Both the position numbers and the translations under genes were made by a program. From NCBI GenBank assembly GCA_040876345.1, contig JBBDPM010000006.1:6803-70802 (forward strand): a stretch of 64,000 nucleotides of DNA, given 5' to 3'. Source of the DNA: Candidatus Woykebacteria bacterium. GTDB lineage: Bacteria; Patescibacteriota; Microgenomatia; Woykebacterales; RBG-16-39-9b. Under the pieces are notes generated by a model. It did no database searches. It saw nothing but the letters and a program-made list of their open reading frames with translations, and was not told the origin of the DNA. This document shows positions 1,633 to 57,682 of the stretch, piece by piece (position 1 is the first letter of the stretch; each line of letters begins with the position of its first letter).

Positions 1633-2517
1633 GTGACAAAAACTTTTGTTGGACCAGGCATTTTAATAGTTTTTGGCATAATTTTCCTTTTGAATAATTT
1701 TGGGATCTTACCATGGGATGTGTGGCTCTCACTTTGGAAGTTCTGGCCAATAATTTTAATTTTGGTTGGCGTGGAAATACTACTGGGAAAGCCTGCCTCT
1801 ATTAAAACTTTTGTGGTACTCTTCGGATTAGTATTTCTTGTCCCAATAATCCTCTCTTATAACCCAATTACCAACAACCCTCTTGCGACTGAGGAATTTG
1901 AAATAGCCGAAAGCCTGGGGGTGGCAACTTCCGCAAAGATAATCTTGGAATTGCCTGCTTCAACCATTAATATTGGTTCCTTGGAGGGAAGCTCGGCTTT
2001 TCTCACCCAAGGTAAAATAGTCTATAGTGAGGCCGCCAAAAAACCCAGTGTAGAAAAAAAGGAAACTGGCGGAAAAATGGAGTTAACTTTAACTCAATCT
2101 ACCCAAGGTAAACTCCCTTTTATTTCAAATCTAAAAACTAATGCTAATCTCTCCCTAACCTCTCTAATACCTTTAGAAATATTCATTAAGACGGGTGCCT
2201 CCACTGCCAACATTGATCTCTCTAAGCTTAAATCTGAGTACTTGGAAGTAAATTCGGGAGCTTCTAGCTTGAATATTAAACTTGCTGATAATTTTAGCCA
2301 AAAAATATTGATTAAAGCAGGGGCTTCCTCAATTACACTAGAAATTCCTGTAAAACTTGAATCAAAAGTTACCGTCGATTCTCAAGTAAAAAGTGTTGCC
2401 GCGCCGGAAAGATTTAAAAAAACAGCTGATACCTACCAAACCAAGGATTTTGAAAAAGCAAACGTTCGGGGGGAGATAGAAATAAAATCGGCGGCTGGAA
2501 GCATAACAATCAAGTAA
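1633..2517 (+). CDS. Membrane protein with two N-terminal TM helices and C-terminal LiaF/DUF4097-like beta-repeat domain
   Basis: N-terminal hydrophobic helices (ILIVFGIIFLLNNFGILPW..., WPIILILVGVEILL). Repeated GASxxNI(x)L strands in the C-terminal half, as in LiaF-like 'putative adhesin' domains. Confidence 0.55.
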   Translation: MTKTFVGPGILIVFGIIFLLNNFGILPWDVWLSLWKFWPIILILVGVEILLGKPASIKTFVVLFGLVFLVPIILSYNPITNNPLATEEFEIAESLGVATSAKIILELPASTINIGSLEGSSAFLTQGKIVYSEAAKKPSVEKKETGGKMELTLTQSTQGKLPFISNLKTNANLSLTSLIPLEIFIKTGASTANIDLSKLKSEYLEVNSGASSLNIKLADNFSQKILIKAGASSITLEIPVKLESKVTVDSQVKSVAAPERFKKTADTYQTKDFEKANVRGEIEIKSAAGSITIK

Positions 2518-2522
2518 AGTTC

Positions 2523-2551
2523 TTGACAAGATGGCGACCTATTGATAATAT
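2523..2551 (+). promoter_or_regulatory. Consensus-like promoter TTGACA-17-TAATAT at the start of GC-rich island B
   Basis: TTGACA at 2523-2528, 17-nt spacer, TAATAT at 2546-2551. Confidence 0.5.
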
Positions 2552-2665
2552 TTGTTCCAATATGACCAAGAAAAGCAGCGTTCTTAGCCTTGTACTCACA
2601 AAGCTCCTCGTTGTGGGGGCAAAACGATTGCGGGGGTAAGAGTATTTCGCACCTTTTTTTAACAA

Positions 2666-2686
2666 CCCCCGCAAGGGGGTTTTTTA
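2666..2686 (+). terminator. Intrinsic terminator hairpin CCCCC-GCAA-GGGGG plus T6, with an upstream alternative pairing partner (TTGCGGGGG at 2621-2629)
   Basis: CCCCCGCAAGGGGGTTTTTT. The upstream TTGCGGGGG is the exact reverse complement of CCCCCGCAA, so two mutually exclusive hairpins are possible (attenuator-like). Confidence 0.5.
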
Positions 2687-2703
2687 GTGTTTATTTTGAT
2701 CAC

Positions 2704-2776
2704 AAGCCCTTCGTACAATGAAGGACAGCCAGACTACCACTGGAAGACGTGGGTTCGAACCCCGCAGGGCTTACCA
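2704..2776 (+). tRNA. tRNA-like element or pseudo-tRNA: perfect 7-bp acceptor stem, T-arm GTGGG/TTCGAAC/CCCGC, encoded CCA; D and anticodon arms non-canonical
   Basis: AAGCCCT...AGGGCTT-A-CCA pair perfectly. The T-loop is TTCGAAC. The only 7-nt anticodon-type loop (ACTACCA, anticodon UAC) has C at positions 33 and 37 and a 4-bp stem. No D-stem can be drawn. Confidence 0.35.
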
Positions 2777-2809
2777 AAAAATCACTGTGGTGGAAAGGAG
2801 ACACCGATC

Positions 2810-3073
2810 ATGACAATCACGGGTAGCTCAAACCCAAGCGCTGCGTTGCTGAGTATCCCTGGGGTACGGACAAAATGTCCCAAGTGCCCGTCCTGCAATC
2901 GACCGGTTGGCAGAGGAAACAGACACACGGACGCGGATGAACTTGACCATAACGACCAAACTCATGTTCACTGCCCGTATGACGACTGCAGGGAAGTTTC
3001 CCTGGTTCGAGGCGACGAAGACGGGATTGTCCTAACTTCACTTCACCAAAGTGGCGAGTCAATGGCGACTTAG
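2810..3073 (+). CDS. Small Cys-rich zinc-ribbon-like protein (~87 aa)
   Basis: AAGGAG 8 nt upstream of the ATG at 2810. Motifs CPKCPSC...HCPYDDC. GC-rich island. Confidence 0.45.
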   Translation: MTITGSSNPSAALLSIPGVRTKCPKCPSCNRPVGRGNRHTDADELDHNDQTHVHCPYDDCREVSLVRGDEDGIVLTSLHQSGESMAT

Positions 3074-3309
3074 CAAATAAGCAGGTCGTTAGAGAGAGGT
3101 GCAATCATTACTACTGACTTCGGTAGGGCCAAACAAGCACTAGCACGGTCGAGGCAGAAGCTTGATCAAGCTTTGGCGGGTTTAATGGTGGCGGATGAGG
3201 AGTCTGTATTTGTTATCGATCTAGTAACTATCATGAGCCAGGTCGAACAACTAGTGCAGACCATCCATTCGGTACAGAACGGGGTCGAGAGATAAAACAG
3301 GAGGCACAC

Positions 3310-3570
3310 ATGGTAGCTCACCCAAGCAACGAAGCAGAAGAGGTGGGAGACGAGGGGCAGGTGGTCGATGCGAAGGAGCGGCGGAAGTTCCGCGAACGGC
3401 TTATCGCTGCAGGAGGGGCCAATAACCAAACACTCGTGCTGGTGGCTCAAGAAGAACTGCTGAAACACCCTGAGTGGAAGCCAGTGGTGGAAAGCGTACT
3501 GAGAGAGTTGGGATTGCAGTACTTGGCGGAGCAAATACACTGCGGTGCCCCTGCCTTCGCTCATAGCTGA
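3310..3570 (+). CDS. Hypothetical 86-aa protein (island B)
   Basis: Strong RBS ACAGGAGG 6 nt before the ATG. Acidic N-terminus. The overlapping minus-strand ORFs have no RBS. Confidence 0.45.
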   Translation: MVAHPSNEAEEVGDEGQVVDAKERRKFRERLIAAGGANNQTLVLVAQEELLKHPEWKPVVESVLRELGLQYLAEQIHCGAPAFAHS

Positions 3571-3674
3571 ACTCACTTGGCGGAGAGAGACAACCAATGA
3601 AAGCGGACCAGCCGGCATAATATCCGCTTCTCACATCGTTGCCCCGGTATCCGGCTCTGCTGGGGCATATCTTC

Positions 3675-3703
3675 TTGAATTGAACTTAACTTCCTGATAT
3701 AAT
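3675..3703 (+). promoter_or_regulatory. clpP promoter TTGAAT-17-TATAAT giving a (near-)leaderless transcript
   Basis: TTGAAT at 3675-3680, TATAAT at 3698-3703. The clpP ATG at 3715 lies only about 5 nt past the expected transcription start, and there is no SD. Confidence 0.55.
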
Positions 3704-3714
3704 CCACTCCACTT

Positions 3715-4371
3715 ATGGAACTAGTCCCGATGGTTATTAAACGCGACCCAAGAGGGGAACGGGCATATGATATTTACAGCCGGCTGCTTGAGGATAGAAT
3801 TATATTTTTAAGCGGGCCAATTACTGATGAAGTAGCCAATATTATAATTGCCGAGCTTTTATATCTTGAAAATGAAGATAACGAAAAGGATATCAGTATT
3901 TATATAAACTCACCTGGTGGTATGGTTCATTCCACCCTAGCAATGTACGACACCATGAAGTATGTGAAACCTGATATTTCGACGGTCTGCGTGGGTTTAG
4001 CAGCCTCTGGGGCAGCAATTATCCTCTCGGGCGGTAAAAAAGGAAAAAGGTATACTCTGCCAAATTCAAAAATAATGATTCACCAGCCAATGACAGAAGT
4101 GTCAGGCCAGGCAAGTGATATAAAAATCCATGCCGATGAGATATTAAAGCTTAGGAAAAAACTTAATGAGATACTATCCAAAGAAACCAAGAGGCCGATG
4201 TCTCAAGTAGAACAGGACACCGACCGCGATTTTTATATGAGCGCTCAGGACGCTGTGAAATACGGGATTATAGACAAAGTAATCGATTCACGAAAAACTC
4301 TCCCCTCAAGAGCAAAAGAGGCCCCGAAAAAAGAAGCACCAGAGACTAATTTGATCGCAGACCTTAGATAA
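3715..4371 (+). CDS. clpP: ATP-dependent Clp protease proteolytic subunit ClpP (with Lys/Ala/Pro-rich C-terminal tail)
   Basis: [19 protein letters not shown]...INSPGG...MIHQP are ClpP hallmarks. Confidence 0.92.
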
Positions 4372-4754: not shown

Positions 4755-6476
4755 ATGAAGTATCCTCTTGAAACAATTAGGCACTCCAGCGCTCACGTAA
4801 TGGCATCTGCCGTAAAAAATTTATTCCCCGGTACAAAACTTGGTATTGGACCCAGAATTGAGAACGGTTTCTATTACGATTTTGACACTAATCACCGCTT
4901 TTCTGAAGAAGATTTCGAAAAAATCGAAAAAGAAATGTTAAAGATAAAAACCCAGAAACTTGAGTTTGAGAGGAGTGAGAAGAGTGTGGATGAAGCTATA
5001 AAATTCTCGGAAAAGTTACCCGAACCGTACAAAGCCGAGCTTATAGAGAATCTTAAAGACCAGGGGGAGAAAAAAGTCTCCTTTTACAAAACCGGGGATT
5101 TTGTGGACCTTTGCCGCGGTCCCCACGTGAAAAACTCAGCCGAAATTGGAGAATTTAAACTTCTCTCTGTAGCCGGTGCTTATTGGAAGGGTAGCGAAAA
5201 AAACAAAATGCTTCAGCGAATCTATGGCACTACCTGGAACACAAAGAACGAGCTGAACGATTATCTAGAAAAACTAAGTGGGGCAAAAAGGAGAGATCAT
5301 AAAAAACTCGGTCAGGAGCTTTCTTTATTCACTTTTTTGCCAGAAGCTCCGGGTATGCCTTTTTGGTATCCGAAGGGTCTGATTATTGTTAATGAGCTAA
5401 AAAGCTACATTCGGGAATTAAACTCAAAATTTGGATATGAGGAGATTTCCACCCCACTACTTGCTAAAAAATCAGTATGGGAAACCTCTGGGCACTGGAA
5501 CCTTTTCCGAGATAATATGTTCACCTTCGACTTGGAAGAGCAAACCTACGCCCTAAAACCTATGAACTGCCCGGAAACCCTACTTCTTTACAATACTAAA
5601 CAATATAGCTATAAGGACTTGCCGGTAAAATGGGCTGACCTTGATCCTCTTCACAGATATGAAGAGTCAGGAACGCTGCACGGCTTGTTTCGGGTAAGAG
5701 GACTATCCCAAGACGATGCTCATGTTTTTTGCGAGGAAGATAAAATAGGAGAGGCCGTTTCGGAAATAATTGAGATGGCCAAGATCGTTTTCAAAACTTT
5801 CGACTTAAAACCCACATTTTATTTATCCACAAGGCCGGACAAAGCGTTGGGAACCCCAAAAACTTGGGAGAGGGCAGAGAAATCTCTAAAGGAAGTATTA
5901 GAAAAGCAAAAAGTAAATTTTGGGATTAAGGAAAAAGACGGAGCCTTTTACGGACCTAAAATTGATCTTCACGTTGAGGATTCTCTAGGAAGAGACTGGC
6001 AGCTTTCAACAATCCAGCTAGATTTTCAAATGCCGGAGAGGTTTTCCGCTACCTACATTGACGATTCTGGCAACAAAAAAACCCCAGTTCTGATACATAA
6101 AGCCCTTTTTGGTTCCTTGGAAAGATTTCTTGGTATTTTAATAGAGCATATCGAAGCAAGGTTTCCAATTTGGCTCTCCCCTGTCCAAACCAAAGTTTTA
6201 CCAATAGCAGAAAGGCACGCTGACTACGCAAGTCAAGTAGTGGAAAAACTTCGAGAAGAGAAAATCAGAGCCGAGACAGACTCGGGAAATGAAACCTTGC
6301 AGTCAAGAATTAGAAACGCCGAATTACAAAAAATCCCGTATATTTTGGTCGTCGGTGACAAGGAGCAGGTTACAAAAAAAATTTCGGTTCGAAAAAGAGG
6401 CTCAAAAGATTTAACTTCAGAGGACCTTGTGGATTTCATAAGACAAGTCAAGAAGCAAATTGAAAACAGGGAATAA
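4755..6476 (+). CDS. thrS: Threonine--tRNA ligase (lacks the N-terminal TGS domain)
   Basis: HSSAHVMA editing-domain motif, class II catalytic core, C-terminal anticodon-binding domain. 573 aa. Confidence 0.9.
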   Translation: MKYPLETIRHSSAHVMASAVKNLFPGTKLGIGPRIENGFYYDFDTNHRFSEEDFEKIEKEMLKIKTQKLEFERSEKSVDEAIKFSEKLPEPYKAELIENLKDQGEKKVSFYKTGDFVDLCRGPHVKNSAEIGEFKLLSVAGAYWKGSEKNKMLQRIYGTTWNTKNELNDYLEKLSGAKRRDHKKLGQELSLFTFLPEAPGMPFWYPKGLIIVNELKSYIRELNSKFGYEEISTPLLAKKSVWETSGHWNLFRDNMFTFDLEEQTYALKPMNCPETLLLYNTKQYSYKDLPVKWADLDPLHRYEESGTLHGLFRVRGLSQDDAHVFCEEDKIGEAVSEIIEMAKIVFKTFDLKPTFYLSTRPDKALGTPKTWERAEKSLKEVLEKQKVNFGIKEKDGAFYGPKIDLHVEDSLGRDWQLSTIQLDFQMPERFSATYIDDSGNKKTPVLIHKALFGSLERFLGILIEHIEARFPIWLSPVQTKVLPIAERHADYASQVVEKLREEKIRAETDSGNETLQSRIRNAELQKIPYILVVGDKEQVTKKISVRKRGSKDLTSEDLVDFIRQVKKQIENRE

Positions 6477-10736: not shown

Positions 10737-12755
10737 ATGTTAGTACCCCTATCTTGGTTAAAAGATTACGTCAATCTTGAAGAAAACTCAGAGGAATTAG
10801 CCGAAAAACTGGTGTTTTCGGGAACTAAAATCGAAGAGATCTTAAAAAAAGAAGGCGAAACTATCTTTAAACTTGAAATAACTCCTAATCGAGCCGACTG
10901 CTTAGGAATAATCGGAGTGGCCCGCGAAGTAGCAGCGCTCTATGAGAGGGATTTAAAAATCCCGCAGCCATTTTTGGAAACAGTCCAAACTAAAAGAAAA
11001 AAATCCTTGAAGCTTACTCTTAAAGACCCATCGCTTTGCCCTTATTACTCTCTGGGCGTAATTGATAACGTGAGAGTTCAAGAGTCTCCAGACTGGCTTA
11101 AAAAAAGGCTTGAACTAGCCGGGATAAGAGCCATCAACAATGTGGTTGATATAACAAATTACGTAATGATTGAGACAGCGCAACCAATGCACGCTTTTGA
11201 CTTGGACAAAGTCAAAGGGGAGGCGGTTTTGCGCTCTAGTAGAAAGGGAGAAAAAGTGACTACTCTTGATGGGGTAGAGCGGTCATTAAATGAAGGCGCC
11301 ATAATAATTGAGGACTCTGAAAAACTCATTGACCTAGCCGGTTTAATGGGCGGTAAAAACTCTCAAGTTGATAAGGACACATCAACAATTGTACTCCACG
11401 TACCAGTGTATAACCCAGTCTCAATAAGAAAAGCGTCCCAATTTACTGGCCTTAGGACTGAAGCCTCCAACCGCTTTGAAAAAATTCTTGATCCAAACGC
11501 CCACCGCTTTGCCTTTGAAAGAGCCCTTCATCTACTAAAAGTAGAAGCCGAAGGCTCCCTTGCTTCAGAGATTAAAAGCGTCAACTATCCAGTTAAAAGC
11601 TCCCCGTTTACGATACTTACTGACGAAATAGATGAAATTCTTGGAGTCAAAATACCGGAAAAGGATATAGTTAACATTTTAGTGAATCTTGGTTTTGAGG
11701 TCCTGCCAAGCCCCAGTACAGAAGGTCACGCCCTTGAAGTAAGGCCACCGACCTGGAGAGGTGATGTAAAAACAACCGAGGACATCGCCGAAGAGGTGGG
11801 TCGAATCTGGGGCTATAATAGCTTTCCCAAAACCCTGCCAAAAGGGGATATACCGACTCACGAAGACTCGTTTAAACCAGACTGGGAAAGGAAGATAAAG
11901 GGTCTTTTACCATCTATTGGTTTTTACGAAACTTACACTCACGCTCTGATAAGCGCGCAAAACCTAGCAAGGCTTTCCATAAGGGAGACCGAGATTTTGA
12001 AAGTCAATAACCCAATGACAGTTGATTTTGAATACCTTCGCCCCACGCTCTTGAGTGGACTTTTGGAAGGGGTAAGTTTAAACCTTCGAAATTTTAAAGA
12101 CGTATCTTTGTTTGAACTTGGAAGAGCCTTTTCAAAAAAAATAGACTCAAAAACAAAGCTCCCGCTTCAGCCGAAAACACTCACCGCTGTCTCTACTTCC
12201 ATGCGATTTTCGCAAATGAAGGGGGTTGTGGAAGAAATACTTACCAAGCTAAATATTAAACAGGCAAGTTTTGAGATTCTTGAAAAAGAGGGAGTTTGGG
12301 ACAAAAATTTTTCGGCGAAGATTAGTACAGTAAAAGACGAGGTAGGAATTGTGGGCAAAATAGACAGCAAAATCACCAAGAATATATCGATTGATAAAGA
12401 AGTATTCGGATTTGAGATTGATTTTGATAAACTAGTAAAACATGCCTCAAGTGAGATTAAGTATAAGTCTCTCCCAAAATTTCCAGTGGTGTATGAGGAT
12501 TTATCAATTCTCGTTGATCAAAAAATAGCGGTTCAGGAAATACTGGACACAATAGAATCCCTTAAAGAAAAACGGCTCCGATCCGCCACAATTGGTGAGG
12601 TTATACCTTGGCAAGAAAACAAAAAATCAATTCTACTCCACTTGGAATACTCTGATAATCAAAAGACCCTCATCGATGATGAAGCAGCAAACATTCGAAA
12701 GAAAATTGTTGAAAAACTAAACAGTAATTTAGATATAGAGTTAAGAAGTTTGTAG
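10737..12755 (+). CDS. pheT: Phenylalanine--tRNA ligase beta subunit (short form, 672 aa)
   Basis: MLVPLSWLKDYV N-terminus, B3/4 and B5 domain order, C-terminal FDX-ACB-like end. Confidence 0.88.
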   Translation: MLVPLSWLKDYVNLEENSEELAEKLVFSGTKIEEILKKEGETIFKLEITPNRADCLGIIGVAREVAALYERDLKIPQPFLETVQTKRKKSLKLTLKDPSLCPYYSLGVIDNVRVQESPDWLKKRLELAGIRAINNVVDITNYVMIETAQPMHAFDLDKVKGEAVLRSSRKGEKVTTLDGVERSLNEGAIIIEDSEKLIDLAGLMGGKNSQVDKDTSTIVLHVPVYNPVSIRKASQFTGLRTEASNRFEKILDPNAHRFAFERALHLLKVEAEGSLASEIKSVNYPVKSSPFTILTDEIDEILGVKIPEKDIVNILVNLGFEVLPSPSTEGHALEVRPPTWRGDVKTTEDIAEEVGRIWGYNSFPKTLPKGDIPTHEDSFKPDWERKIKGLLPSIGFYETYTHALISAQNLARLSIRETEILKVNNPMTVDFEYLRPTLLSGLLEGVSLNLRNFKDVSLFELGRAFSKKIDSKTKLPLQPKTLTAVSTSMRFSQMKGVVEEILTKLNIKQASFEILEKEGVWDKNFSAKISTVKDEVGIVGKIDSKITKNISIDKEVFGFEIDFDKLVKHASSEIKYKSLPKFPVVYEDLSILVDQKIAVQEILDTIESLKEKRLRSATIGEVIPWQENKKSILLHLEYSDNQKTLIDDEAANIRKKIVEKLNSNLDIELRSL

Positions 12756-12761
12756 TCTCAA

Positions 12762-12797
12762 CGCCGTCTGAAAGTGCTTAAGCAACCTCAGACGGCG
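12762..12797. terminator. 10-bp perfect hairpin (CGCCGTCTGA/TCAGACGGCG) at the pheT end and island boundary; no T-tract
   Basis: Inverted repeat at 12762-12771 and 12788-12797 with a 16-nt loop. Confidence 0.4.
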
Positions 12798-12834
12798 CGT
12801 TGTGTTGGACCGCATTCGGACAAGGCAGTTGACC

Positions 12835-13053
12835 TCATTCCGGCGCTTTCACAACAAAGGCGATCTTCACTTCTCTCCGCCCAAAGACCTCTTCTACCCG
12901 CCAACCAACAAGGTGAGCCGCCTCACCGTAGTAGTACTCCGTAAGGGCAGCATCACGTTCCTCGGTCGTGTAGAGCCCATCTCGATACAGGTCAAGAAGA
13001 GCCGCTACGTGCTCCTCAACTATCCGTTCAGGATCGTCGGTGGTAGTAACCAT
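12835..13053 (-). CDS. Hypothetical acidic 72-aa protein (GC-rich island)
   Basis: ATG at 13051-13053 (minus strand) preceded by GAGGAAG. The product begins MVTTTDDPERIVEEH. Confidence 0.45.
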   Translation of the reverse strand: MVTTTDDPERIVEEHVAALLDLYRDGLYTTEERDAALTEYYYGEAAHLVGWRVEEVFGRREVKIAFVVKAPE

Positions 13054-13421
13054 AACAACTTCCTCATCAGAACAGCAGCCGCAGCTCCCTAACAACATGC
13101 AGCACTTATACCTCAGGAGATTCGAAGATCCCCTCCTGGCAAAATGCCACAGACCTCTCTCTGATGAGCACCGAAAGGGCAGCCAGGAGCTGCCGGCAGC
13201 CTAGGCGATCGGGCCAAACAATGTACGAGACATCCCAGTTGGGTGGGGGCCAGGGGGTGGCACAAGGCCGCCCAACACCCTAAACTGGTGAACTCGCAAG
13301 GCTCAGGTGAGCCGTCCAGCCCTGCCTTGGGAAAGGGTAGCTCTGGGGAGTTCTTCGGTGGGACCCCATCCAGCAAACCCTTTCGGTGCTCATTTAGACC
13401 GCTCAGACCAACCGCCTCATG

Positions 13422-13973
13422 CTATCCTATCGCGCGAATCTTGACTTGGGCTGGTCGGGCTGTTACAACCGGGCCCGGTTGATAACCTCCCCACACGCAA
13501 CGAATCTCTTCCCTATGCGCACGGAAGAAGGTGGGGAACCAAGTGAGGTATTCGAGAACCTCCTCACGAATCCGCCTGTTGATGCTGTACGGGCGGCTTT
13601 CGTTTTGCACTACTTCCCGCCACGTTTGAACTCCGTCAGCACCCACCGCAAGATCCCCCTCGAGCACTGCCCCGAAACGTTGCAGATACCGCTCCACCTC
13701 GAGGCGAAGGCGCTCAAAGTTCTGTAACAGCCTGACTACCTGGTCGTCGTATCCTGGGAAGGGGTTAGGACCCCTAATCACCAAGTCCTTAGCCTTGCCC
13801 CTGGCAAGGTAAGCGAGCCAGAAGATCGTATCCACTGAACCGCGGACCAAACCTTCGGCAAGGACGAGATCGTGTCTTTCGAAACCGATGTTGAGTAGGA
13901 ATTCCCCCGCGAAGTCTTCCGCAGGTCTATCCTCACCAGTTCCCACCCCCTGTGAAGAATCTGGTAGGGTCAT
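13422..13973 (-). CDS. Hypothetical ~183-aa protein (GC-rich island)
   Basis: ORF with an internal ATG preceded by AAGGAGG. No known motif recognised. Confidence 0.4.
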   Translation of the reverse strand: MTLPDSSQGVGTGEDRPAEDFAGEFLLNIGFERHDLVLAEGLVRGSVDTIFWLAYLARGKAKDLVIRGPNPFPGYDDQVVRLLQNFERLRLEVERYLQRFGAVLEGDLAVGADGVQTWREVVQNESRPYSINRRIREEVLEYLTWFPTFFRAHREEIRCVWGGYQPGPVVTARPAQVKIRAIG

Positions 13974-14115
13974 TTGGCGTTTGGGCCTCCTTTCCACTCG
14001 CAAGTCGGTCTGAGCGGCGGGACTGGGTACGAAGCAGCACACTTTCTCGTACTCAATCCCGCACGTTTATTAAAGTACAAGCAGAATATACTATATTTTA
14101 ACCTGAAAAGGCAAA

Positions 14116-27351: not shown

Positions 27352-27966
27352 TTAAAAAACTCTTGTGCCAACGGTAGTTTCAAAAGGGAGATTTATTTGG
27401 TAATCATTTCTGGTAGGGGCGCCTATTCCTTGGGCAACTGTGAAAGCAAATAAAACAATTTGCTGTTGATTTACAGTGCCAGTAATTGTAAACACATCGT
27501 TTGCCCCTGCCACATTAACATTATCACATACAATATTTACTCCTGAGGTACTATCAGTATTGGTCAGAACCTCAAGGTTTCCGCTGAGTTGAATCTCTCT
27601 TGTAAACCTTCCATTATCACTGCCTGTAGATCCCACGCATTTCCAGTCTACATACTCGTCACGATGTTTAATAGTTATACCGTTAGTTCCGTTCGGTGTA
27701 ATACTGAGAGCCGGGCGAATATCTCGTTCAAAAAGATCTATTATAATTGCAGCGTTTTGACGCGCTTCGTTAGTTACTTGTGTTTTGTTCTGGGAGCGCA
27801 GAATTCCAATAAATACGCTGGAAGCAATCCCTATTAAAATACCCAGAATTGCCGTGACCACCAGAAGCTCAAGGATAGTGAATCCTTGGCTACCAAAAAC
27901 CTTGTTTTTTTCATTATCAACCTTAAATTTGCGTTTCATGCTATTTAAGTCTTCTTGCCAATACAA
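27352..27966 (-). CDS. Minor pilin-like protein (GFTILELLVV)
   Basis: Prepilin motif SQGFTILELLVVTAILGIL. Confidence 0.8.
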   Translation of the reverse strand: MYWQEDLNSMKRKFKVDNEKNKVFGSQGFTILELLVVTAILGILIGIASSVFIGILRSQNKTQVTNEARQNAAIIIDLFERDIRPALSITPNGTNGITIKHRDEYVDWKCVGSTGSDNGRFTREIQLSGNLEVLTNTDSTSGVNIVCDNVNVAGANDVFTITGTVNQQQIVLFAFTVAQGIGAPTRNDYQINLPFETTVGTRVF

Positions 27967-28655
27967 CTAACATCTGATTTTCGGTGTGTACCTGCTTGGT
28001 CTGTCCACTTAACAACAATCGTGAATTGCTTGATGTGTCGGAAATTAGCATTTTGATTGCATTTACTAACTGGGGGAGTATCCGCAATAAAAAGCCCTGT
28101 TGTGTAAGTCACTCCACCGATGTTGATTAAGAAATCTTTTTGATCATCACCGTTACCATGAATACACCAAGAAGATGATGCAGGAATATTTTCAGGCGCA
28201 ATATTAGCTTCATCAGTCCGGCAAGGTAAGGCGGGCAAGTACGTAGGATCTCCTGAGACATGAAAAGCGTATCTTAATCCGTAGCTAGGGTTTACATAAT
28301 TATCAGAGGTGCTGACAAAATTTGTTAACGGTGGATCGTCGCAATGAGAGCCGCAAGGAGTATCTGGAAGATCACATTCGAAAAGACCGTTAAAGTTTGT
28401 AAGCTGGTTACAAGGCGCACCATCTTTTCTGGGAATTATAGCCCTCGGATCATTCAGGGCTTTTATATTCCTTACTATCTCTATCCCTTGTTGACCAAGT
28501 TTGGAAGCTTGCTCTTGATTTCTGGCAAAATTTGCGTTGCGATTGCTTCTGGTGGCTAGTCCTAAAATTGCGGTTATGAATATTGCCCCGACTGCCAAGG
28601 CAATCAAAACTTCAATTAAAGTCTGCCCTTTTTTGGATTTTAAATAAGTCTTCAT
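27945..28655 (-). CDS. Type IV prepilin-like protein (KGQTLIE), paralog of 26614-27351
   Basis: Near-identical N-terminal 60 aa to the 26614 gene. Confidence 0.8.
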   Translation of the reverse strand: MKTYLKSKKGQTLIEVLIALAVGAIFITAILGLATRSNRNANFARNQEQASKLGQQGIEIVRNIKALNDPRAIIPRKDGAPCNQLTNFNGLFECDLPDTPCGSHCDDPPLTNFVSTSDNYVNPSYGLRYAFHVSGDPTYLPALPCRTDEANIAPENIPASSSWCIHGNGDDQKDFLINIGGVTYTTGLFIADTPPVSKCNQNANFRHIKQFTIVVKWTDQAGTHRKSDVSCIGKKT

Positions 28656-28670
28656 GTCATCTAATAACTA

Positions 28671-29390
28671 CTAGTTTGCCGTAATTTGGCCTGATTTATC
28701 CACAGTTACAGAATGGGTTGTAGTACCTTCTGTAAGCGAAATTACGGCCCGACGACAATTTGGATACGTTATGTCACTTATTAACGTCGCAGTAATAAGA
28801 TCGATGGTACCATAGTAGAATTGTATATCCCGAAGAGACTTGAAATTTATTACTAAAATGTCGCCTGCTGTATACCCACAATCTGTACCATCAGATTTTG
28901 TTACGCTGATAGAGCTAACTTTAACATTCGGCGGTAGTTTCACTATATCTGTTGGGCCCCCTTGAATATCCCCAGGTGGGGTTCCTGGGGCGGGTGTACA
29001 AGCCTGGGCTCGATTGTATTTTATTGAGGTGGGCAACGTGGATTTATCAAAGGCTAAGTAGTGCCCGCGAAGATTATAATCGTCAATACTGTCCGATAAA
29101 GCGGCTCCGCTACTATTATAGGCGTCCGTTTTGCAACTTTGGTGCTTAAGCCCAGATACAGCTCTGTTTTGGGATTCGCGAAACTTGGATTTTAGTTCTG
29201 AAGCACCCCTAGCCACGTTTTGCCCCCGATTAAAGCTGTTATAAGCTGCCACCGCTCCACCAGTAAGAAGACCAATAATCGCAACTACAACAAGAAGCTC
29301 GATAAGCGTGAAGCCTTGGGAAAAATTAGGAACTATAAATGAGAAATGAGATTCAGTCTTTTTTGAATTATATTTCGGGGCAGAGAGCAT
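28671..29390 (-). CDS. Type IV prepilin-like protein (GFTLIELLVVVAIIGLL)
   Basis: Class III signal peptide motif. Confidence 0.8.
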   Translation of the reverse strand: MLSAPKYNSKKTESHFSFIVPNFSQGFTLIELLVVVAIIGLLTGGAVAAYNSFNRGQNVARGASELKSKFRESQNRAVSGLKHQSCKTDAYNSSGAALSDSIDDYNLRGHYLAFDKSTLPTSIKYNRAQACTPAPGTPPGDIQGGPTDIVKLPPNVKVSSISVTKSDGTDCGYTAGDILVINFKSLRDIQFYYGTIDLITATLISDITYPNCRRAVISLTEGTTTHSVTVDKSGQITAN

Positions 29391-29451
29391 AAATAAAGTG
29401 TAACAAAGAAGTAATATACATGCAACAAATCGCTAACCCCTCATCTCTAAT

Positions 29452-29955
29452 CTACTCATTGGAGACCTTGTAGTTGTATACATTATCCCCAGGCCAGTCG
29501 TGACAGTCTTCGTAGTTGTAAGTGGTGGAGCCCTCTGGTGGGTTCTCCAAAACAGCAAGTAGGACGTATGTATTTCTGTCTTTGTGGAGATAAAAATAGT
29601 CTTTACCCGTACCAGCATTAGCAGGGTCTTGGGGGATTCCACTCGGAAAGTATGGACTCAGAGCATCCTTAGCTTCAGGAATCGTTATCGTAACTATCCT
29701 ACCGCAAAAACCAACTTGCCCAGGCAACTCTCGGTTTTCTTCATAATAAGCTTCAAGAGCGTTTGCGATTTTTAATAAATCTTCTTTTCTATTATCATCA
29801 TTAAAATTTCTTAAAAAATAGACTGGAGTGTATTTGGAAAGATTAAAACTGGGATTATAAAAAGAATAAGCAGTCAAAGCTCCATATAGAAAAGCAACTA
29901 TTATTATTAACGAAATTATCCCTATTCCTTTTTGATTAATTCTAGTGAAATTCAT
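29452..29955 (-). CDS. Pilin-fold protein lacking canonical prepilin cleavage motif
   Basis: N-terminal TM plus a GspG-like block IANALEAYYEENRELPG. No G-F-T-L-I-E. Confidence 0.45.
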   Translation of the reverse strand: MNFTRINQKGIGIISLIIIVAFLYGALTAYSFYNPSFNLSKYTPVYFLRNFNDDNRKEDLLKIANALEAYYEENRELPGQVGFCGRIVTITIPEAKDALSPYFPSGIPQDPANAGTGKDYFYLHKDRNTYVLLAVLENPPEGSTTYNYEDCHDWPGDNVYNYKVSNE

Positions 29956-30449
29956 TAATCAGGGCAGATGAAATATTGGTAAGTAGTATCCCACCCCGTA
30001 GGGTTTTGGGCTACGCCCCCACATTTAGCAAATGTAGCCGTGTCTTCTGGGGTAGGGTATTGAAGTGTTACAGCGGCTCGATATTCCAAATCTGGTACAT
30101 TAATAGGGGCGGGGTAGTTTTCTCCTCTGTAAACCCAATCAGTACCACATGTTCCAGCGGGCAGTTGCCTTGTATAAGCAGTTACTAACTTTGTGGTTAA
30201 GTTTGTGCACTCAGCTGCTTGACTAGCGTTGTCTTTTGGATAATGTTGTGTTGCTGCCGATTGATTGTCATTAAAATAAAGTTGCAGAGCGTGTTTGAGC
30301 TCTTGCATCTCCTGCCTCTTTTTACTATCTCTTGCTTCTCCAATTAATCTGGCCGGATTTATAGCAATGACTGCAATAGTTACCAAAATCCCAATAATTG
30401 CGATAACCACCAAAAGCTCTATTAATGAGAAACCCTTTATATTCTTCAA
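29955..30449 (-). CDS. Type IV pilin (KGFSLIELLVVIAIIGIL)
   Basis: Class III signal; pilin alpha1 helix. Confidence 0.8.
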   Translation of the reverse strand: MKNIKGFSLIELLVVIAIIGILVTIAVIAINPARLIGEARDSKKRQEMQELKHALQLYFNDNQSAATQHYPKDNASQAAECTNLTTKLVTAYTRQLPAGTCGTDWVYRGENYPAPINVPDLEYRAAVTLQYPTPEDTATFAKCGGVAQNPTGWDTTYQYFICPD

Positions 30450-30502
30450 AAATATTCCCCCTTATACATATTATTTAATCCAAAAAATAGCTCTAATTAT
30501 CT

Positions 30503-30931
30503 CTACGGACATATATTAGCAGCTGGAACAACCCCCAAACTTGTTACTTGCCTATCTGATTGTCGATATATCCACCAGGTCGGAGGGTTAGTTGTTCTAC
30601 CTTGTTCCCAAACACAAATATCAGTGGTAGCACCAACTGCCGGTGTAAAATCAAAAGCGACTGTTGCAGCAAGTTGACCGTCTCCACCAGCACTACCTTC
30701 CACATCCGCCACAGAATTGCAATTGTCAAGGTTGCCGTTTTGCCGAGTTACACAACTGGTTAGCAAGGTACCAGACGCTCGTACGTTTGCTTGGGATCTT
30801 TGATCTGCAGCTTCCCGTAACCGCTCGGCTGGGTTAATGGCAACAACTATAATAACAACCAAAATTGCAATAATTGCGATTACGACCAAAAGCTCAATCA
30901 ATGTAAAACCTGCATCTTTCGCACTTGTCAT
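30503..30931 (-). CDS. pilA: Type IV pilin, probable major pilin (C-terminal Cys pair), tandem paralog
   Basis: AGFTLIELLVVIAIIAIL. C-terminal C...C (disulfide D-region). About 80% identical to the 30995 gene. Confidence 0.8.
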   Translation of the reverse strand: MTSAKDAGFTLIELLVVIAIIAILVVIIVVAINPAERLREAADQRSQANVRASGTLLTSCVTRQNGNLDNCNSVADVEGSAGGDGQLAATVAFDFTPAVGATTDICVWEQGRTTNPPTWWIYRQSDRQVTSLGVVPAANICP

Positions 30932-30994
30932 TTGAATTTAATAGCTACTAAGAACTAATAGCTATTAAATTGGGTGTTACCGCTATGATTAACC

Positions 30995-31447
30995 CTAAGG
31001 ACACGTATTAGCTGCAGGTGCAGCTGCCTGGACCAAGCTTCGAACCTGTCCATCTGAAGCCCGATATATCCACCAAGTTGATGCAGAAGTTGTTCTTCCC
31101 TGTTCAAATACACAAATGTCAGTTGTTGCACCAACTGCCGGTGTAAAATCAAAAGTAACTGTGGATGCAAGTTGGCCATCCCCACCAGCAGCAGCCTCAA
31201 CGTCAGTTTGACTATTACAGTTATCAAGGTTACCATTTTGGCGAGTTACACAAGTACTTAACAAAGTACCAGAAGAACGCACGTTGGAGGCTGCTCTTCT
31301 ATCGGCAGCTTCTCTAAGTCTTTCCGCCGGGTTAATGGCGACAACCACAATTACCACCAATATAGCAATAATGGCGATTACGACCAAAAGCTCGATAAGG
31401 GTGAAACCCTTTTGATCTCTTAATTTCGAGATTAATCTATCTTTCAA
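30995..31447 (-). CDS. pilA: Type IV pilin, probable major pilin, tandem paralog
   Basis: KGFTLIELLVVIAIIAIL. Same architecture as 30503-30931. Confidence 0.8.
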   Translation of the reverse strand: MKDRLISKLRDQKGFTLIELLVVIAIIAILVVIVVVAINPAERLREAADRRAASNVRSSGTLLSTCVTRQNGNLDNCNSQTDVEAAAGGDGQLASTVTFDFTPAVGATTDICVFEQGRTTSASTWWIYRASDGQVRSLVQAAAPAANTCP

Positions 31448-47775: not shown

Positions 47776-48120
47776 CATAAGTATATTCTCCGAAATATAT
47801 ACGAATAAGTCAATTCGGACAAAGTGGATCAAAATAGTAAAAACTTAACATGGTTAGCTCAGACAACAAGTCTGAGCGCAGCACGCGAGAGTACTCTAGC
47901 CCATGAAATGGTCGCAGAGCGACTAGTGAGGTAATTTAGTTACGGAACGTGATATAATCGCCGCAGCCGGAAGTAGGAGAGTAGACCTGGCAACCGGGAT
48001 GACCCAGGAAAGTGGTTGAGGTCTCTAAGTCAATCACGGCTGACTCGGGAATAGGGGACCCGCGCCTTAACCGCAAGCGCAAAAAACCAACGAAAGCCAC
48101 GCACATTCACACTGGAGGTA

Positions 48121-49440
48121 ATGATGCAACTAACGAAGCCGAGAAACCTAGAACGGGTGGTTGTCACCGGAATGGGCGGAGAAACACCGCAAGGTGACTT
48201 AGAGCAAACCTGGGCGTCGGTGCTTGGCGGAAAGAGTGTAATCAAGCCCGTTGTCTACTCCATCCAGACACCAACCGAAGTGGGAAACCGGGGCAGAATC
48301 AAAAAACGAACCACCGTCAGGGAAGAAGTCTATCTAACCGCACCCCTGCCAGATGGGTGGGACAACGAACTTGACCCCAAAGACAAGAGAAGGACCGATG
48401 TCAACGGTCAGCTTCTTGTCTTGGGCATCGGCCGAGCCCTGAATTCAGCTTGCCTAACCGAGCGCGATCGAACTGATGTCGGTCTCATCACGGGCACCAA
48501 TCTGGTCTTCACCGAGTACAACGTCGACCAGATCGAGTGCTACATTCACTTTGGTGTAGCTGACCCATTGGCAGCAGCCAAAGTGATGATCAACAACGCC
48601 GCTGGCTACGGCGCAATTCGCTACGGTCTTGGCGGCCCCAACTTCGCCCTCTCCTCCGCTTGCGCAAGCGGTAGCATGGCGGTGGGGGAAGCGTTCAGAA
48701 AAGTCCAGTACGGGGACGCGCCAATCATGTTGGCGGCTGGAGTTGAAGGTGCCACTCACCCACAGAACCTCTACGCTTTCGAACAGGCAAAGGCCTACTC
48801 CACATCCCTCGATAAGGGAGCGGCAGCGAGTCGTCCCGGAAGCTGTTCTCGGGATGGGTTCGTAATGGGAAACGGCTGCGTCGTGCTCGTCCTCGAGTCT
48901 CTCAACTCGGCACTCGACAGGGGAGCGCCAATTTTGGCGGAAATCATTGGCTACGGCAACACAGACGATAAGGACAGCCTCTACGACCCTCCTGAAGATG
49001 GCGAAGGTCTCAAAAGAGCGATCATCAGATCTTTGCAAGACGCAGAGATCTACGATCAGCTCGCGGAGATAGCCGACCAATGCTACTACAACGGCCACAC
49101 CACAGGAACGCCTAATGGAGATAGCGCCGAACTGATGGCTATTAGGGACGCCTTCGGCCCAAAGGCCGTGAGGATGCTCAAGATGAGCTTCACCAAGAGC
49201 AGTACAGGCCATCTTCTCGGTTGTGCTGGTGCCCTTGAAGCTGCTCTGTGTGTTATGGTCATCCAGGACCAATTGATCCCACCAACCATCAACCTGGACG
49301 ATCCTGACACAAAGCTTGGTGGTCTCCAGGTTGTCAAAGACAACCCACTGGCAGCGACCATCAACTACACGATTAGTCCGTCTGCCGGCTTTGGCGGTCA
49401 CAACGGGTGCGTCGTTATCAGAAAGTGGAAAGGGGAGTAG
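48121..49440 (+). CDS. Stand-alone beta-ketoacyl-ACP synthase (FabF/KAS-II-like), GC-rich
   Basis: RVVVTGMG, active-site Cys SSACASG, His motifs NGHTTGTPNGD and GHLLGCAG. GGAGG 7 nt upstream. No other fab genes adjacent. Confidence 0.8.
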   Translation: MMQLTKPRNLERVVVTGMGGETPQGDLEQTWASVLGGKSVIKPVVYSIQTPTEVGNRGRIKKRTTVREEVYLTAPLPDGWDNELDPKDKRRTDVNGQLLVLGIGRALNSACLTERDRTDVGLITGTNLVFTEYNVDQIECYIHFGVADPLAAAKVMINNAAGYGAIRYGLGGPNFALSSACASGSMAVGEAFRKVQYGDAPIMLAAGVEGATHPQNLYAFEQAKAYSTSLDKGAAASRPGSCSRDGFVMGNGCVVLVLESLNSALDRGAPILAEIIGYGNTDDKDSLYDPPEDGEGLKRAIIRSLQDAEIYDQLAEIADQCYYNGHTTGTPNGDSAELMAIRDAFGPKAVRMLKMSFTKSSTGHLLGCAGALEAALCVMVIQDQLIPPTINLDDPDTKLGGLQVVKDNPLAATINYTISPSAGFGGHNGCVVIRKWKGE

Positions 49441-49520
49441 TAGGGATTGAAAGGATAGGGAGCAACGCTCTGCTGGTGTGCGCCTAACGGCCTGGCAGTA
49501 CCCAGTAGAGCGTCTCCACT

Positions 49521-50315
49521 TTAAGTCTTAGACTTTCTCCACCTTGAATCAAGCGCTTCTTGTTCACTACAAAACCAACGCTCACCCTTACTCTCATCAA
49601 TCACTATCTTGTCGTAATATTTTTGGCCGAGTAAATGATAAATTTTCTCGCCAGAACTTGATATATTTCCTTTTATTAGGCATTGGCCAGACTGAGACTG
49701 AGTCTGATAGGTAGGATTAGTAACTCCAACAGCGTCGCATACTCCCCAAAGACCCTTATTATTTTCTCGAGCAAATTTTTCAGCTTTATTAAAACGATCC
49801 TGAAGTTTTACATCTGGTGGATAAGGGGAAGAATGAGCAAAACCTTCTTTAACCAAAATTTCGTTCATCAAAGTATCTCCAACCCAGATATAACGAAGAA
49901 GTCTCCCGTATTTGTCAGTCTCAGAAATGTCTTTTTCCAGCTTTACCTTTTTACCCTCAACCAAACTTCTATTTTTGGCAGTTGCTTCTTTTCCAAAGCA
50001 TTGTACCGACTTTCGGGGATCTACGGTTTCTGGTGTATCAATACCAATATAACGCACTTTTTGCCCACCCTCAAGCTCAACAGTATCTCCATCGACTACT
50101 TTTGTTACTAAAACCTCATCCCCTTTAGGAGAAGACAACCCATCAACATCAGTACCTGAGGGTGGGTTAAAAGTTTGACCACCCACTTGACCTCCAATTT
50201 CTTTCTTTACTATTTCTTCGGTTGTCTGTCGTGATAGTGAAGAGGAAACAAGAATAGTAGCGCCAAAGACTATTAACAGTGTGGAAATGAACGCCAAATA
50301 ACCTTTACTTTTCAT
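49521..50315 (-). CDS. Membrane-anchored thermonuclease (SNase family) with C-terminal Cys-containing module
   Basis: N-terminal TM. SNase motifs VVDGDTVEL...RYIGIDTPE...RLLRYIW. Confidence 0.75.
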   Translation of the reverse strand: MKSKGYLAFISTLLIVFGATILVSSSLSRQTTEEIVKKEIGGQVGGQTFNPPSGTDVDGLSSPKGDEVLVTKVVDGDTVELEGGQKVRYIGIDTPETVDPRKSVQCFGKEATAKNRSLVEGKKVKLEKDISETDKYGRLLRYIWVGDTLMNEILVKEGFAHSSPYPPDVKLQDRFNKAEKFARENNKGLWGVCDAVGVTNPTYQTQSQSGQCLIKGNISSSGEKIYHLLGQKYYDKIVIDESKGERWFCSEQEALDSRWRKSKT

Positions 50316-56732: not shown

Positions 56733-57089
56733 AAATACCCTAATATAATCGAATTATCTAATTCGAATTTATTCGAATAAAATTCGGTTGCATTGTCATG
56801 GAAGCAACCGAAAACAGTCCTCAAGATAAAATCCGAACCCGTTGCCTACATTAAAAGAGACCTCGATCTCATTAAAGATTGATCTTACAACCTCTTTAAT
56901 CTAACCCCATAGTTATTGACTCATCCGTATAAATGTGCCAATATTTACCTCTTACGTAAGCCAAACGAGCTTGTGCTAGATGAAGAGAGGAGAAGCAACG
57001 TGGAAATCACGTACGAAAGCACGATCTAACTCAAGGATCTCACAGCGATTGCTAGGGAGATCCTGCCTCAAGTCCTGGAAAAACTGGTA

Positions 57090-57416
57090 GTGGGAGACGG
57101 GCTTACTAACCCTGTCCAAACAACCCTGATCCTCCCGGAAGGCCTCGAACTGGACATTACGTCTGCAAAGGGTTTTACCCCTTTGACCGAGGATGATCTC
57201 GACAGAATGGCCAAGGGTTGGGCCGAAAAGTTCCTCGAACAACTGACGATCCGCGGCATCGAGATCTACTCGGACTTCGATCACAAGGGTGTCATACTCG
57301 AACAGGAACTGGCACCTGAAGATCGGGCTTTCATACTCGTCATGCAAGTGCAACTATCCAGAAGCTGCGACAAGCAATCGGCACGGCCTAGAATTAGAAA
57401 GAGGAGGTTCCCTTGA
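57090..57416 (+). CDS. Hypothetical 108-aa protein (GC-rich island), GTG start
   Basis: ORF with a 9-codon upstream ORF carrying AGAGGAG; overlaps the next gene by 4 nt. Confidence 0.4.
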   Translation: MGDGLTNPVQTTLILPEGLELDITSAKGFTPLTEDDLDRMAKGWAEKFLEQLTIRGIEIYSDFDHKGVILEQELAPEDRAFILVMQVQLSRSCDKQSARPRIRKRRFP

Positions 57417-57682
57417 AGATATCGGGAGAAATAACTTTCGACCAGATCGTATTGGCTGGTTCGAACTTCCTTTCGGCCTTGGAAAAGCCAGAGGAACACA
57501 AGCAAATGACTGTCGAGGGGTACACCGAAATGTTCCTTGACGGTCTGAAAGATCGAGGAATCTCCACGTGGGACGAGCTTCTCGCTGAGGACAATCGCGA
57601 GATCTTCACCGAAAGTGACCAAAAGGAGGCAGACCCACTGATGCGTCAGTTCTTAGCGGTGATCCTCCACGAAGTCACTTAA
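57413..57682 (+). CDS. Hypothetical acidic 89-aa protein (GC-rich island), TTG start
   Basis: GAGGAGG 6 nt before the TTG. Overlapped (TTGA) with the upstream ORF stop, consistent with an operon. Confidence 0.4.
   Translation: MKISGEITFDQIVLAGSNFLSALEKPEEHKQMTVEGYTEMFLDGLKDRGISTWDELLAEDNREIFTESDQKEADPLMRQFLAVILHEVT

Follow-up and report, generated by a model that had tools for sequence, protein, structure and literature searches.

The window analyzed here is a stretch of 64,000 nucleotides (nt) from a Candidatus Woykebacteria bacterium (contig JBBDPM010000006.1, positions 6,803 to 70,802 of the forward strand), with a guanine plus cytosine (GC) content of ~41% and several islands of 50–57% GC. 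Between the genes for a LiaF-like membrane protein and for ClpP, it carries a compact module composed of a promoter, a short open reading frame (ORF), a G-rich box which can pair with the 5′ arm of an intrinsic terminator, the terminator itself, a tRNA-like element, and genes of small proteins led by Shine–Dalgarno (SD) sequences, the first of which encodes a zinc (Zn)-ribbon-like protein. The sequence features that an earlier note on the window had listed for this region are all present, and they recur at one slot in ~17 related Patescibacteria loci.

Relatives of the locus were fetched with the LiaF-like protein as the anchor (2 genome loci and 28 metagenome loci), and 3 further loci, including the complete 915-kb chromosome OZ246414.1, were reached through homologs of the Zn-ribbon protein; single loci are cited below as L001, L002, and so on. 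The synteny from LiaF to clpP is maintained wherever the contig extends far enough. In L011 and L012, the intergenic space between the two genes is 264 nt and the module is absent. In ~17 other loci this space is 570–1600 nt, and all of them have the identical order, that is, a TTGACA promoter, a short ORF, the G-box, a C4-6…G4-6 terminator with a T-run, at least one tRNA or tRNA-like element, SD-led small ORFs, a conserved hairpin, and the promoter of clpP. The LiaF-like proteins of the genomes bearing the module are 39–69% identical. The terminator type was found nowhere else within ~275 kb (the window and related loci), and this, together with the shared layout, is an indication that the module is single copy, locus specific, and clade wide, and not a sporadic insert. 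Absence from related genomes had been named by the earlier note as the outcome that would speak against its reading; the hairpins and the tRNA-like slot were found conserved in the relatives.

The promoter had been described as a good one, which is borne out by its parts (TTGACA at 2523–2528, TG at 2543–2544, and TAATAT at 2546–2551), and TTGACA is invariant in sequence and position across 14 aligned relatives. The ATG of the leader ORF lies 36–43 nt past the start of the −35 box and ~7–13 nt past the −10 box (15 loci), a distance so short that the leader mRNA is essentially leaderless. The ORF has 24–28 codons in the relatives and 22 codons in L032. Its frame is free of internal stops in 15 out of 15 ATG-initiated leaders; of the alternative frames, +1 is interrupted by stops in all loci counted and +2 in 10 out of 16. 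Of 15 loci measured, 11 have the stop codon 0–2 nt past the G-run and four have it 7–8 nt past; its type varies (TAA, TAG, or TGA) while its position stays. The region had been taken as untranslated, a view that this conserved ORF speaks against. The leader peptides follow a recognizable pattern (M..K....LV...LL.G....RG) and share one semiconserved Val at codon 11, mostly GUA, the copy of which in the window falls inside the pairing segment named region 1 (table 1). In a comparison with the leader families of Pfam no match was found. As judged from its sequence, this ORF, with its 22–28 codons and its constant spacing from the promoter, has the properties of the short translated ORF of a leader-peptide attenuator.

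Two mutually exclusive pairings had been predicted for the leader, and both are present and conserved in ~16 loci. The terminator of the form CCCCC-GCAA-GGGGG with T6 stands as first described. In the case of the competing pair, the downstream strand had been placed correctly (CCCCCGCAA at 2666–2674) and the upstream strand 7 nt off; TTGCGGGGG had been given at 2621–2629 and is located at 2628–2636. The full duplex of TTGCGGGGGT, the G-box, with ACCCCCGCAA (2665–2674) has 10 bp and −20.4 kcal/mol (z = −4.3 vs. shuffled leaders). In nearly all loci, no segment of the leader pairs better than the G-box with the 5′ arm of the terminator; the duplexes range from −11.8 to −20.4 kcal/mol, and their z values relative to shuffled sequences from −1.1 to −4.4. 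The nucleotides of the G-box are kept across three reading frames (CGG GGG in the window, GGG GGA in L009, and G GGG GA in L007), and the constraint therefore acts at the RNA level. There is also three-way covariation: L032 has GGGGCT with AGCCCC…GGGGCT, and L014 has TGGGGGT with ACCCCCA. In L003, four G in the G-box are matched by four C in the terminator. The flanks of the G-box pair with loop bases of the terminator, which the terminator alone would leave unconstrained.

The structure of the leader was judged by folding each sequence separately and by duplex analysis; RNAalifold on MAFFT leader alignments found the terminator alone, because the stems are out of register. In the window, the leader segment forms a long imperfect hairpin (2568–2660) followed by the terminator (−45.7 kcal/mol, z = −3.4). 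Its apical hairpin recurs in the same position, with different stem sequences, in nearly every one of the 14 relatives folded. When nascent RNAs were folded without the 3′ arm of the terminator, the G-box paired with region 3 in 10 out of 14 loci; in the remaining four, including the window, it paired with the pyrimidine-rich region 1 inside the leader ORF. The full-length minimum free energy (MFE) fold retains the terminator in 12 of the 14 loci folded. A scan of the + strand found no promoter from 2552 to 3675, so that all expression downstream of the terminator depends on read-through. An Rfam E-value scan of 2523–2690 returned nothing credible, and excluded the identity of this stretch with a known riboswitch, the signal recognition particle RNA, 6S RNA, or transfer-messenger RNA (tmRNA).

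In sum, a terminator and a mutually exclusive antiterminator using its 5′ arm, the two pairing elements of an attenuator, are present in ~16 loci. The alternative-hairpin switch proposed ahead of the small-protein gene is upheld, its competition being conserved and covarying in ~16 relatives with no intervening promoter. Since the leader ORF is conserved and leaderless, the most likely reader of the switch is a ribosome and not a ligand. The leader stop abutting the G-box suggests that the position of the ribosome may select the hairpin.

Table 1. Features of the module and of its neighbors in the window.
Feature	Position	Strand	Remarks
LiaF-like membrane protein gene	1633–2517		Pfam LiaI-LiaF-like_TM1 and LiaF-TM matches; upstream neighbor of the module
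Sigma-70-type promoter	2523–2551	+	−35 TTGACA, 17-nt spacer, extended −10 TG-n-TAATAT; 10/12 matches
Putative leaderless leader ORF	2562–2639	+	25 codons (MTKKSSVLSLVLTKLLVVGAKRLRG); stop TAA 2637–2639
Region 1	2588–2594	+	CCUUGUA; pairs with the G-box in the MFE fold; inside the leader ORF
Apical hairpin	2603–2620	+	Inside the leader ORF
G-box (region 2)	2628–2637	+	TTGCGGGGGT; antiterminator strand; last base is the first base of the leader stop
Intrinsic terminator (regions 3 and 4)	2664–2685	+	AACCCCC-GCAA-GGGGGTT (2664–2681), then T6 (2680–2685)
Pseudo-tRNA-Val(UAC)	2704–2776	+	73 nt; acceptor 7/7, canonical T-arm, A73-CCA; degenerate D and anticodon arms
SD of the Zn-ribbon ORF	2794–2801	+	AAAGGAGA
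Zn-ribbon-like protein	2810–3073	+	87 aa; ATG 2810, stop 3073; CPxC...H...HxHC..C...S...G invariant
Possible second small ORF	3107–3295	+	62 aa from ATT 3107 or 40 aa from TTG 3173; weakly supported
HPEW small protein	3310–3570	+	86 aa; SD ACAGGAGG upstream
Hairpin closing the module	3640–3667	+	TGCCCCGGTATCCGGCTCTGCTGGGGCA; kept in L001, L003, L032, and L034
clpP promoter	3675–3703	+	Downstream of the closing hairpin
clpP	3715–4371		Apparently leaderless
tRNA-Val(GAC)	from 4372		Genuine; directly after clpP

The tRNA-like element agrees with its earlier description as a 73-nt element with a perfect acceptor stem (AAGCCCT/AGGGCTT, 7 out of 7 pairs), a T-arm with a TTCGAAC loop (GTGGG-TTCGAAC-CCCGC), and an encoded CCA (here ACCA). 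A relaxed search with tRNA finders had been suggested as a check, with no hit as the adverse outcome, and hits were obtained. On the Rfam tRNA model (RF00005), the element scores 32.5 bits, above the gathering score of 29 and full length over model positions 1–71; genuine host tRNAs score 68–75 bits. ARAGORN is silent at its default, 95%, and 90% thresholds and reports a tRNA-Val(tac) at 85% or lower. The D and anticodon arms are degenerate, as had been noted. In detail, the anticodon loop (A-C-U-A-C-C-A) has C33 and C37, the anticodon stem has a G27:A43 mismatch, the D loop (AAUGAA) is without G18G19, and the D stem has an A12:G23 mismatch. The acceptor end is A1-U72, and the tRNA features retained are U8, A14, A21, the canonical T-loop, A35-C36, and A73-CCA. 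Without U33, R37, and G18G19, the element is a pseudo-tRNA and not a decoding tRNA.

The element has all the parts of a minihelix, that is, a 7-bp acceptor on a 5-bp T stem, a loop with T54 and A58, and a 3′ NCCA. A strict scan for acceptor, T-arm, and NCCA over both strands of the whole window returned this element and the tRNA-Val(GAC) at 4372 only. The sequence points to a tRNA-derived element whose acceptor/T-arm half looks selectively maintained, with the probable role proposed below. Two other identities were rejected. A suppressor tRNA (CUA within the loop) is excluded, as the register of the loop yields UAC, and for a tmRNA or a permuted tmRNA beside clpP there was no match from ARAGORN or the Rfam tmRNA models. 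In L007, permuted-tmRNA models match partially, at chance level only.

In the relatives, genuine tRNAs found in the slot are Val-TAC (L002 and L023), Leu-GAG (L002, L004, and L023), and a tRNA with a UCA anticodon (L005). Cloverleaf-like pseudo-tRNAs occupy it in L001, L003, L004, L010, and L032. Bare acceptor and T-arm minihelices of 43–47 nt, without D and anticodon arms, are located in L007, L009, L013, and L015, and the 3′ ends of the minihelices are ACCA, ACCG, or ATCA. The tRNAs of the module score 45–65 bits on the Rfam tRNA model, lower than those of the host. Under a strict scan (7/7 acceptor, 5/5 T stem, T54, A58, and G53:C61), matches directly after the attenuator were obtained in the window, L001, L003, L005, L007, L015, and L023; the scan adds a tRNA-Leu further downstream in L002, L004, and L023, with 10 loci listed overall. 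The element starts 8–18 nt past the terminator, a spacing that is constant across loci. L013 and L015 are 93% identical over the stretch, and their acceptor stems differ by a compensatory change from A:T to T:A. From these sequences, the acceptor/T-arm half seems to be under selection, with the decoding half free to decay. The compensatory changes and the presence of a tRNA, a pseudo-tRNA, or a minihelix at one position suggest that the minihelix is kept for a reason, which is most likely processing by RNase P.

The slot shows further peculiarities in some of the relatives. In L002 (4703–4889) and L023 (6163–6349), a well-formed tRNA-Val(TAC) is split in its anticodon loop by ~114 nt. The insert holds a second, lower-scoring tRNA-Val(TAC), and the joined halves give a canonical tRNA; this could be an insertion with its own replacement tRNA or an intron-like arrangement. 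The tRNA after the attenuator of L005 (1443–1515, Rfam 64.6 bits), with its UCA anticodon, is opal-suppressor or selenocysteine like, and L001, a close relative of L005, has a degenerate copy of it in the slot. A conserved element of ~90 nt (GGAGGG...CCCCTCCA) is found directly after the attenuator in L002 (4611–4700), L007 (6082–6165), and L009 (6051–6135), with variants in L013 and L015 (~6069–6120). A helix closes it, and it contains a hairpin resembling a T-arm (TGCAACT loop); it has no CCA, matches no Rfam family, and looks like a second kind of tRNA-like RNA.

The first protein of the module is the SD-led, Cys-rich product of 87 amino acids (aa) that had been proposed, and its ORF was confirmed. 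Related ORFs are found in L003 (E = 1e-11) and L005 (E = 1e-9), and an exhaustive profile search of 1.84 billion representatives gave a family of 4 proteins. Homolog searches returned relatives from the module locus only; P0002–P0004 and the ORF of L005 all lie between the LiaF-like gene and clpP. A family confined to one slot is therefore not the cargo of a promiscuous mobile element. Its invariant residues are C26, P27, C29, H39, H52, H54, C55, C60, S64, G68, and L75. In the GDEDGIVL block, the window and L003 differ at third codon positions only, which is an indication that the gene is under selection at the protein level. The public gene call (P0001, 128 aa) starts at GTG 2687 and is translated through the pseudo-tRNA. 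The start is placed at ATG 2810 because the homologs have 62–67 aa and because of the position of the SD. An AlphaFold2 model of the protein is a small all-beta domain with a predicted local distance difference test (pLDDT) score of 66.6. It had no match in Pfam at the cutoff (PknG_rubred, 18 bits vs. 28.5) and none in Foldseek with E < 1; PDB sequences gave generic zinc fingers only, and PHROGs were uninformative.

Upstream of the possible second small ORF there is an SD-like GAGAGAGGTG, and no homolog of this ORF was found. The 86-aa product, HPEW, is registered in NCBI as [quoted passage not shown] and has a homolog in the equivalent slot of L032/L033 (E = 1.8e-6). A third family, WP, is common to L001, L003, and L032 and absent from the window. 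The genes follow the order Zn-ribbon, HPEW, and WP, some being lost in particular lineages and some interrupted by in-frame stops, a pattern indicative of vertical inheritance accompanied by decay. No paralogs of the module ORFs were found in the other GC-rich islands of the window.

Stops within conserved module ORFs, with the frame kept, are located in L032 (4335–4337), L034 (3840, 3882, and 3930), and L009 (~6311). In L034, the TGA stands where the WP family has a conserved Trp. In L032, which is a complete genome, the HPEW homolog is broken by a TAG that a single tblastn high-scoring segment pair spans. These stops may reflect pseudogenization or read-through.

The best explanation as a whole, to which we give a probability of about one half, is that Woykebacteria-like Patescibacteria carry here, on the chromosome and in one copy, an expression module passed on by vertical descent, in which a leader-peptide attenuator gates a transcript composed of a tRNA-Val-derived minihelix and then a small-protein operon. 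The mechanism is drawn by analogy with the trp/ilv/leu attenuators. The strong promoter would start a nearly leaderless mRNA, the first 25 codons of which would be the leader ORF within a four-segment attenuator, with region 1 and the apical hairpin in the ORF, the G-box as region 2, and the C5-GCAA-G5-T6 terminator as regions 3 and 4. A ribosome at the leader stop would cover the G-box, the 3:4 hairpin would form, and transcription would end at ~2686. If there is no translation, 1:2 and 3:4 would form, with termination likewise. A ribosome stalled early, around Val codon 11 (GUA), would leave the G-box free to pair with region 3, and RNA polymerase would read through. The read-through RNA would then open with the pseudo-tRNA derived from tRNA-Val(UAC), its decoding half decayed and its acceptor, T-arm, and ACCA intact. 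This minihelix probably serves as a signal for processing by RNase P, and its cleavage would part the leader from the SD-led mRNA of the Zn-ribbon and HPEW proteins.

Several points weigh against this explanation. Tandem regulatory codons for a sensed amino acid are absent, the leader peptides having only a moderate enrichment in Leu, Val, and Ile (14%, 10%, and 7%) and no run of identical regulatory codons, and the leader of L032 has a GTG start and a stop two codons early. The pseudo-tRNA folded alone is not exceptional (z = −1.1 vs. shuffles), in a 258-nt context the MFE fold loses its acceptor stem, and the CCA is not universal (ACCG in L009, ATCA in L013 and L015, and none in L034). The in-frame stops in the module ORFs of several relatives show that the protein cargo is not under uniform selection. 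Lastly, the module (2704–3640 in the window and the equivalent stretches elsewhere) lies 5–16 GC points above the host in 13 out of 13 loci, a persistent excess which a purely vertical origin does not account for; recurrent exchange among related lineages and selection on RNA structure are possibilities.

The other explanations concern either the tRNA-like element or the module as a unit. It is possible, although we rather doubt it, that the element is a functionless, decaying tRNA-Val(UAC) pseudogene in a hot spot where tRNA genes turn over rapidly, with its acceptor and T-arm looking intact by chance or because the decay is recent. Relatives do hold real tRNAs in the slot (Val-TAC, Leu-GAG, and UCA), the decay series is graded and the module tRNAs score below those of the host, L002 and L023 have a split tRNA-Val with a nested copy, the module ORFs decay too, and the folding z is just −1.1. 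Neutral decay, however, is expected in all arms equally, and here all 7 acceptor pairs and all 5 T-stem pairs are kept in 10 or more lineages, whereas the D and anticodon arms are lost or scrambled, down to bare minihelices; the compensatory acceptor change between L013 and L015 and the constant spacing of 8–18 nt from the terminator also disagree with such a decay. That the element is a functional, unusual tRNA-Val(UAC) is hardly credible. Its Rfam score above gathering and its U8, A14, A21, canonical T-loop, A35-C36, and A73-CCA would suit a tRNA, but C33 and C37 violate two near-universal rules of the anticodon loop, G18G19 is missing, G27:A43 and A12:G23 are mismatched, the end is A1-U72, and ARAGORN rejects it down to the 90% threshold, with host tRNAs at ~70 bits. 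We consider it unlikely that the conserved core is the RNA and not the protein, with a ribosome- or tRNA-sensing attenuator gating a CCA-ended, tRNA-Val-derived minihelix and the small proteins as secondary cargo. In this case, the ancestral role of the attenuator may have been the autoregulation of a tRNA-Val(UAC) gene by way of the GUA codon conserved in region 1. The minihelix would then act as an independent RNA. It could be bacterial punctuation of the "t-element" kind processed by RNase P, or a possibly valylatable (A35, C36, and A73) decoy or sensor set free under translational stress.

As for the leader, if 2562–2686 were a gene in its own right, ending in its own terminator and encoding a 25-aa peptide or serving as a dual-function small RNA, the complementarity of G-box and terminator would have to be a by-product of the likeness of the G-box to the 3′ arm of the terminator, with downstream genes expressed via leak-through only. 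This seems quite improbable to us. The recognizable peptide pattern, the strong promoter, and the terminator kept in the full-length MFE fold of 12 out of 14 loci are what such a gene would show; on the contrary, the G-box nucleotides are kept in three frames and their flanks pair with the loop bases of the terminator, no locus has a separate promoter for the downstream tRNA or tRNA-like elements and ORFs, and the peptide has charged residues in mid-sequence and matches no known family. Still less probable is the reading of the island at 2690–3700 as a mobile element integrated at a tRNA gene, with the tRNA-like element as the remnant of an attachment site, which the earlier note had considered. 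The GC-rich island (53% vs. ~41%) begins exactly at the tRNA-like element, and its ORFs have strong SDs and a GC content at third codon positions (GC3) of 0.52–0.62, unlike the host genes (GC3 of 0.35–0.41), many of which, among those examined, lack an SD or a leader. GC-rich islands elsewhere in the window look foreign, and the tRNA-Val of L002 is interrupted by an insertion. Nevertheless, no second copy of the tRNA 3′ end exists in the 64 kb (26-mer with up to 3 mismatches and 14-mer with up to 2), and no integrase or recombinase family was matched by the island ORFs and the flanking ORFs scanned. In 50,697 phage records there was no DNA similarity, and PHROGs gave noise only. The Zn-ribbon, HPEW, and WP genes are confined to the syntenic slot in related genomes, and they keep one order in these genomes, with their LiaF-like identities of 39–69%, which does not agree with an integrated element.

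Outside of the module, further observations were made in the window. Positions 1–1450 hold, on the minus strand, a GC-rich (53%, GC3 0.64) ORFan of 476 aa that has a strong SD and no Pfam or PHROG family; it separates the CTP_transf_like and LiaF-like genes, which are adjacent in L032–L034. A GC-rich (56%) island at 12751–14100, between pheT and a PBP1A-like gene, has ORFs of 87 and 206 aa on the minus strand, for which no homologs were seen among the fetched loci. Two more GC-rich islands, at 47851–49600, with a ketoacyl-synthase-like protein of 439 aa, and at 56951–58450, with short ORFs only, are probably horizontally acquired DNA. At five places in 27843–31408 there are direct repeats of 43–300 nt, 65–81% identical, which look like a conserved hydrophobic N-terminal segment, possibly pilin like, of tandem paralogous genes on the minus strand. 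The neighboring clpP appears to be leaderless, with a −10 TATAAT at 3698–3703 and its ATG at 3715, and likewise in all relatives.

The locus is a compact, conserved, and testable candidate for translation-coupled attenuation on a leaderless mRNA. Regulatory RNA mechanisms of the Patescibacteria, or Candidate Phyla Radiation (CPR), are almost uncharted because the organisms are uncultured and their genomes minimal; the literature searched for tRNA-like elements in this group, or for leader-peptide control of tRNA operons, gave nothing relevant. The slot offers a natural series from functional tRNA to pseudo-tRNA to bare minihelix, in which the half recognized by RNase P is alone retained. If the minihelix is processed, bacteria would have their own equivalent of the plant mitochondrial t-elements, and decayed tRNA genes would have been exapted to punctuate mRNA. 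If a tRNA-Val gene was the ancestral target of the attenuator, the supply of a tRNA would have been under leader-peptide attenuation, of which no case was found in the literature searched. There is also a lesson for annotation, as gene callers run the Zn-ribbon ORF over the pseudo-tRNA (128 vs. 87 aa) and miss the leader ORF.

Among known systems, the attenuators of amino-acid operons (trpL, hisL, leuL, ilvL/ivbL, thrL, and pheL) resemble the module in their short leader ORF, their intrinsic terminator, and an antiterminator overlapping the end of the ORF, as well as in an upstream segment of the ORF that can sequester the antiterminator strand (the 1:2, 2:3, 3:4 logic). Unlike them, the module has a leaderless start, no run of cognate codons, and a Patescibacterium as host, and downstream of its attenuator lie a tRNA or pseudo-tRNA and ORFan mini-proteins instead of biosynthetic enzymes. 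Integrative elements targeted to tRNAs, with attL/attR at tRNA 3′ ends, share with it a compositionally distinct island starting from a tRNA-like 3′ end, but the module has no integrase and no direct repeat, and its cargo is syntenic clade wide. In Escherichia coli, tRNAs and mRNAs are cotranscribed in thrU-tyrU-glyT-thrT-tufB, secG-leuU, and tyrT-tpr, the last with a small ORF after the tRNA, and they are separated by RNase P and other RNases. The module would likewise have tRNA or tRNA-like and protein genes on one transcript, whereas the tRNAs of the E. coli transcripts are functional and do not stand behind a leader-peptide attenuator.

The tRNA-like domain of tmRNA and the minihelix substrates of RNase P have, like the element of the window, an acceptor, a T-arm, and NCCA with no functional anticodon arm. 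The acceptor and T-arm half is the minimal substrate of RNase P, and model substrates of this kind are cleaved (McClain, Guerrier-Takada and Altman, reviewed in PMC11143913). In contrast to tmRNA, the element lacks a tag reading frame, pseudoknots, and G3:U70, and the tmRNA models of ARAGORN and Rfam are unmatched. The closest functional analogy for the pseudo-tRNA is with the t-elements of plant mitochondria, tRNA-like structures which define mRNA ends via RNase P/RNase Z (PMC1920247). Both are degenerate tRNA-like elements beside an mRNA, with acceptor and T-arm kept, decoding lost, and a presumed function as a processing signal. The t-elements are organellar and experimentally mapped, whereas the element of the module is bacterial, has its CCA encoded, and would be cleaved by analogy. 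Each ingredient of the module is known; the novelty lies in how they are combined, in a leader that is itself leaderless, in the series of pseudo-tRNAs, and in a host from the CPR.

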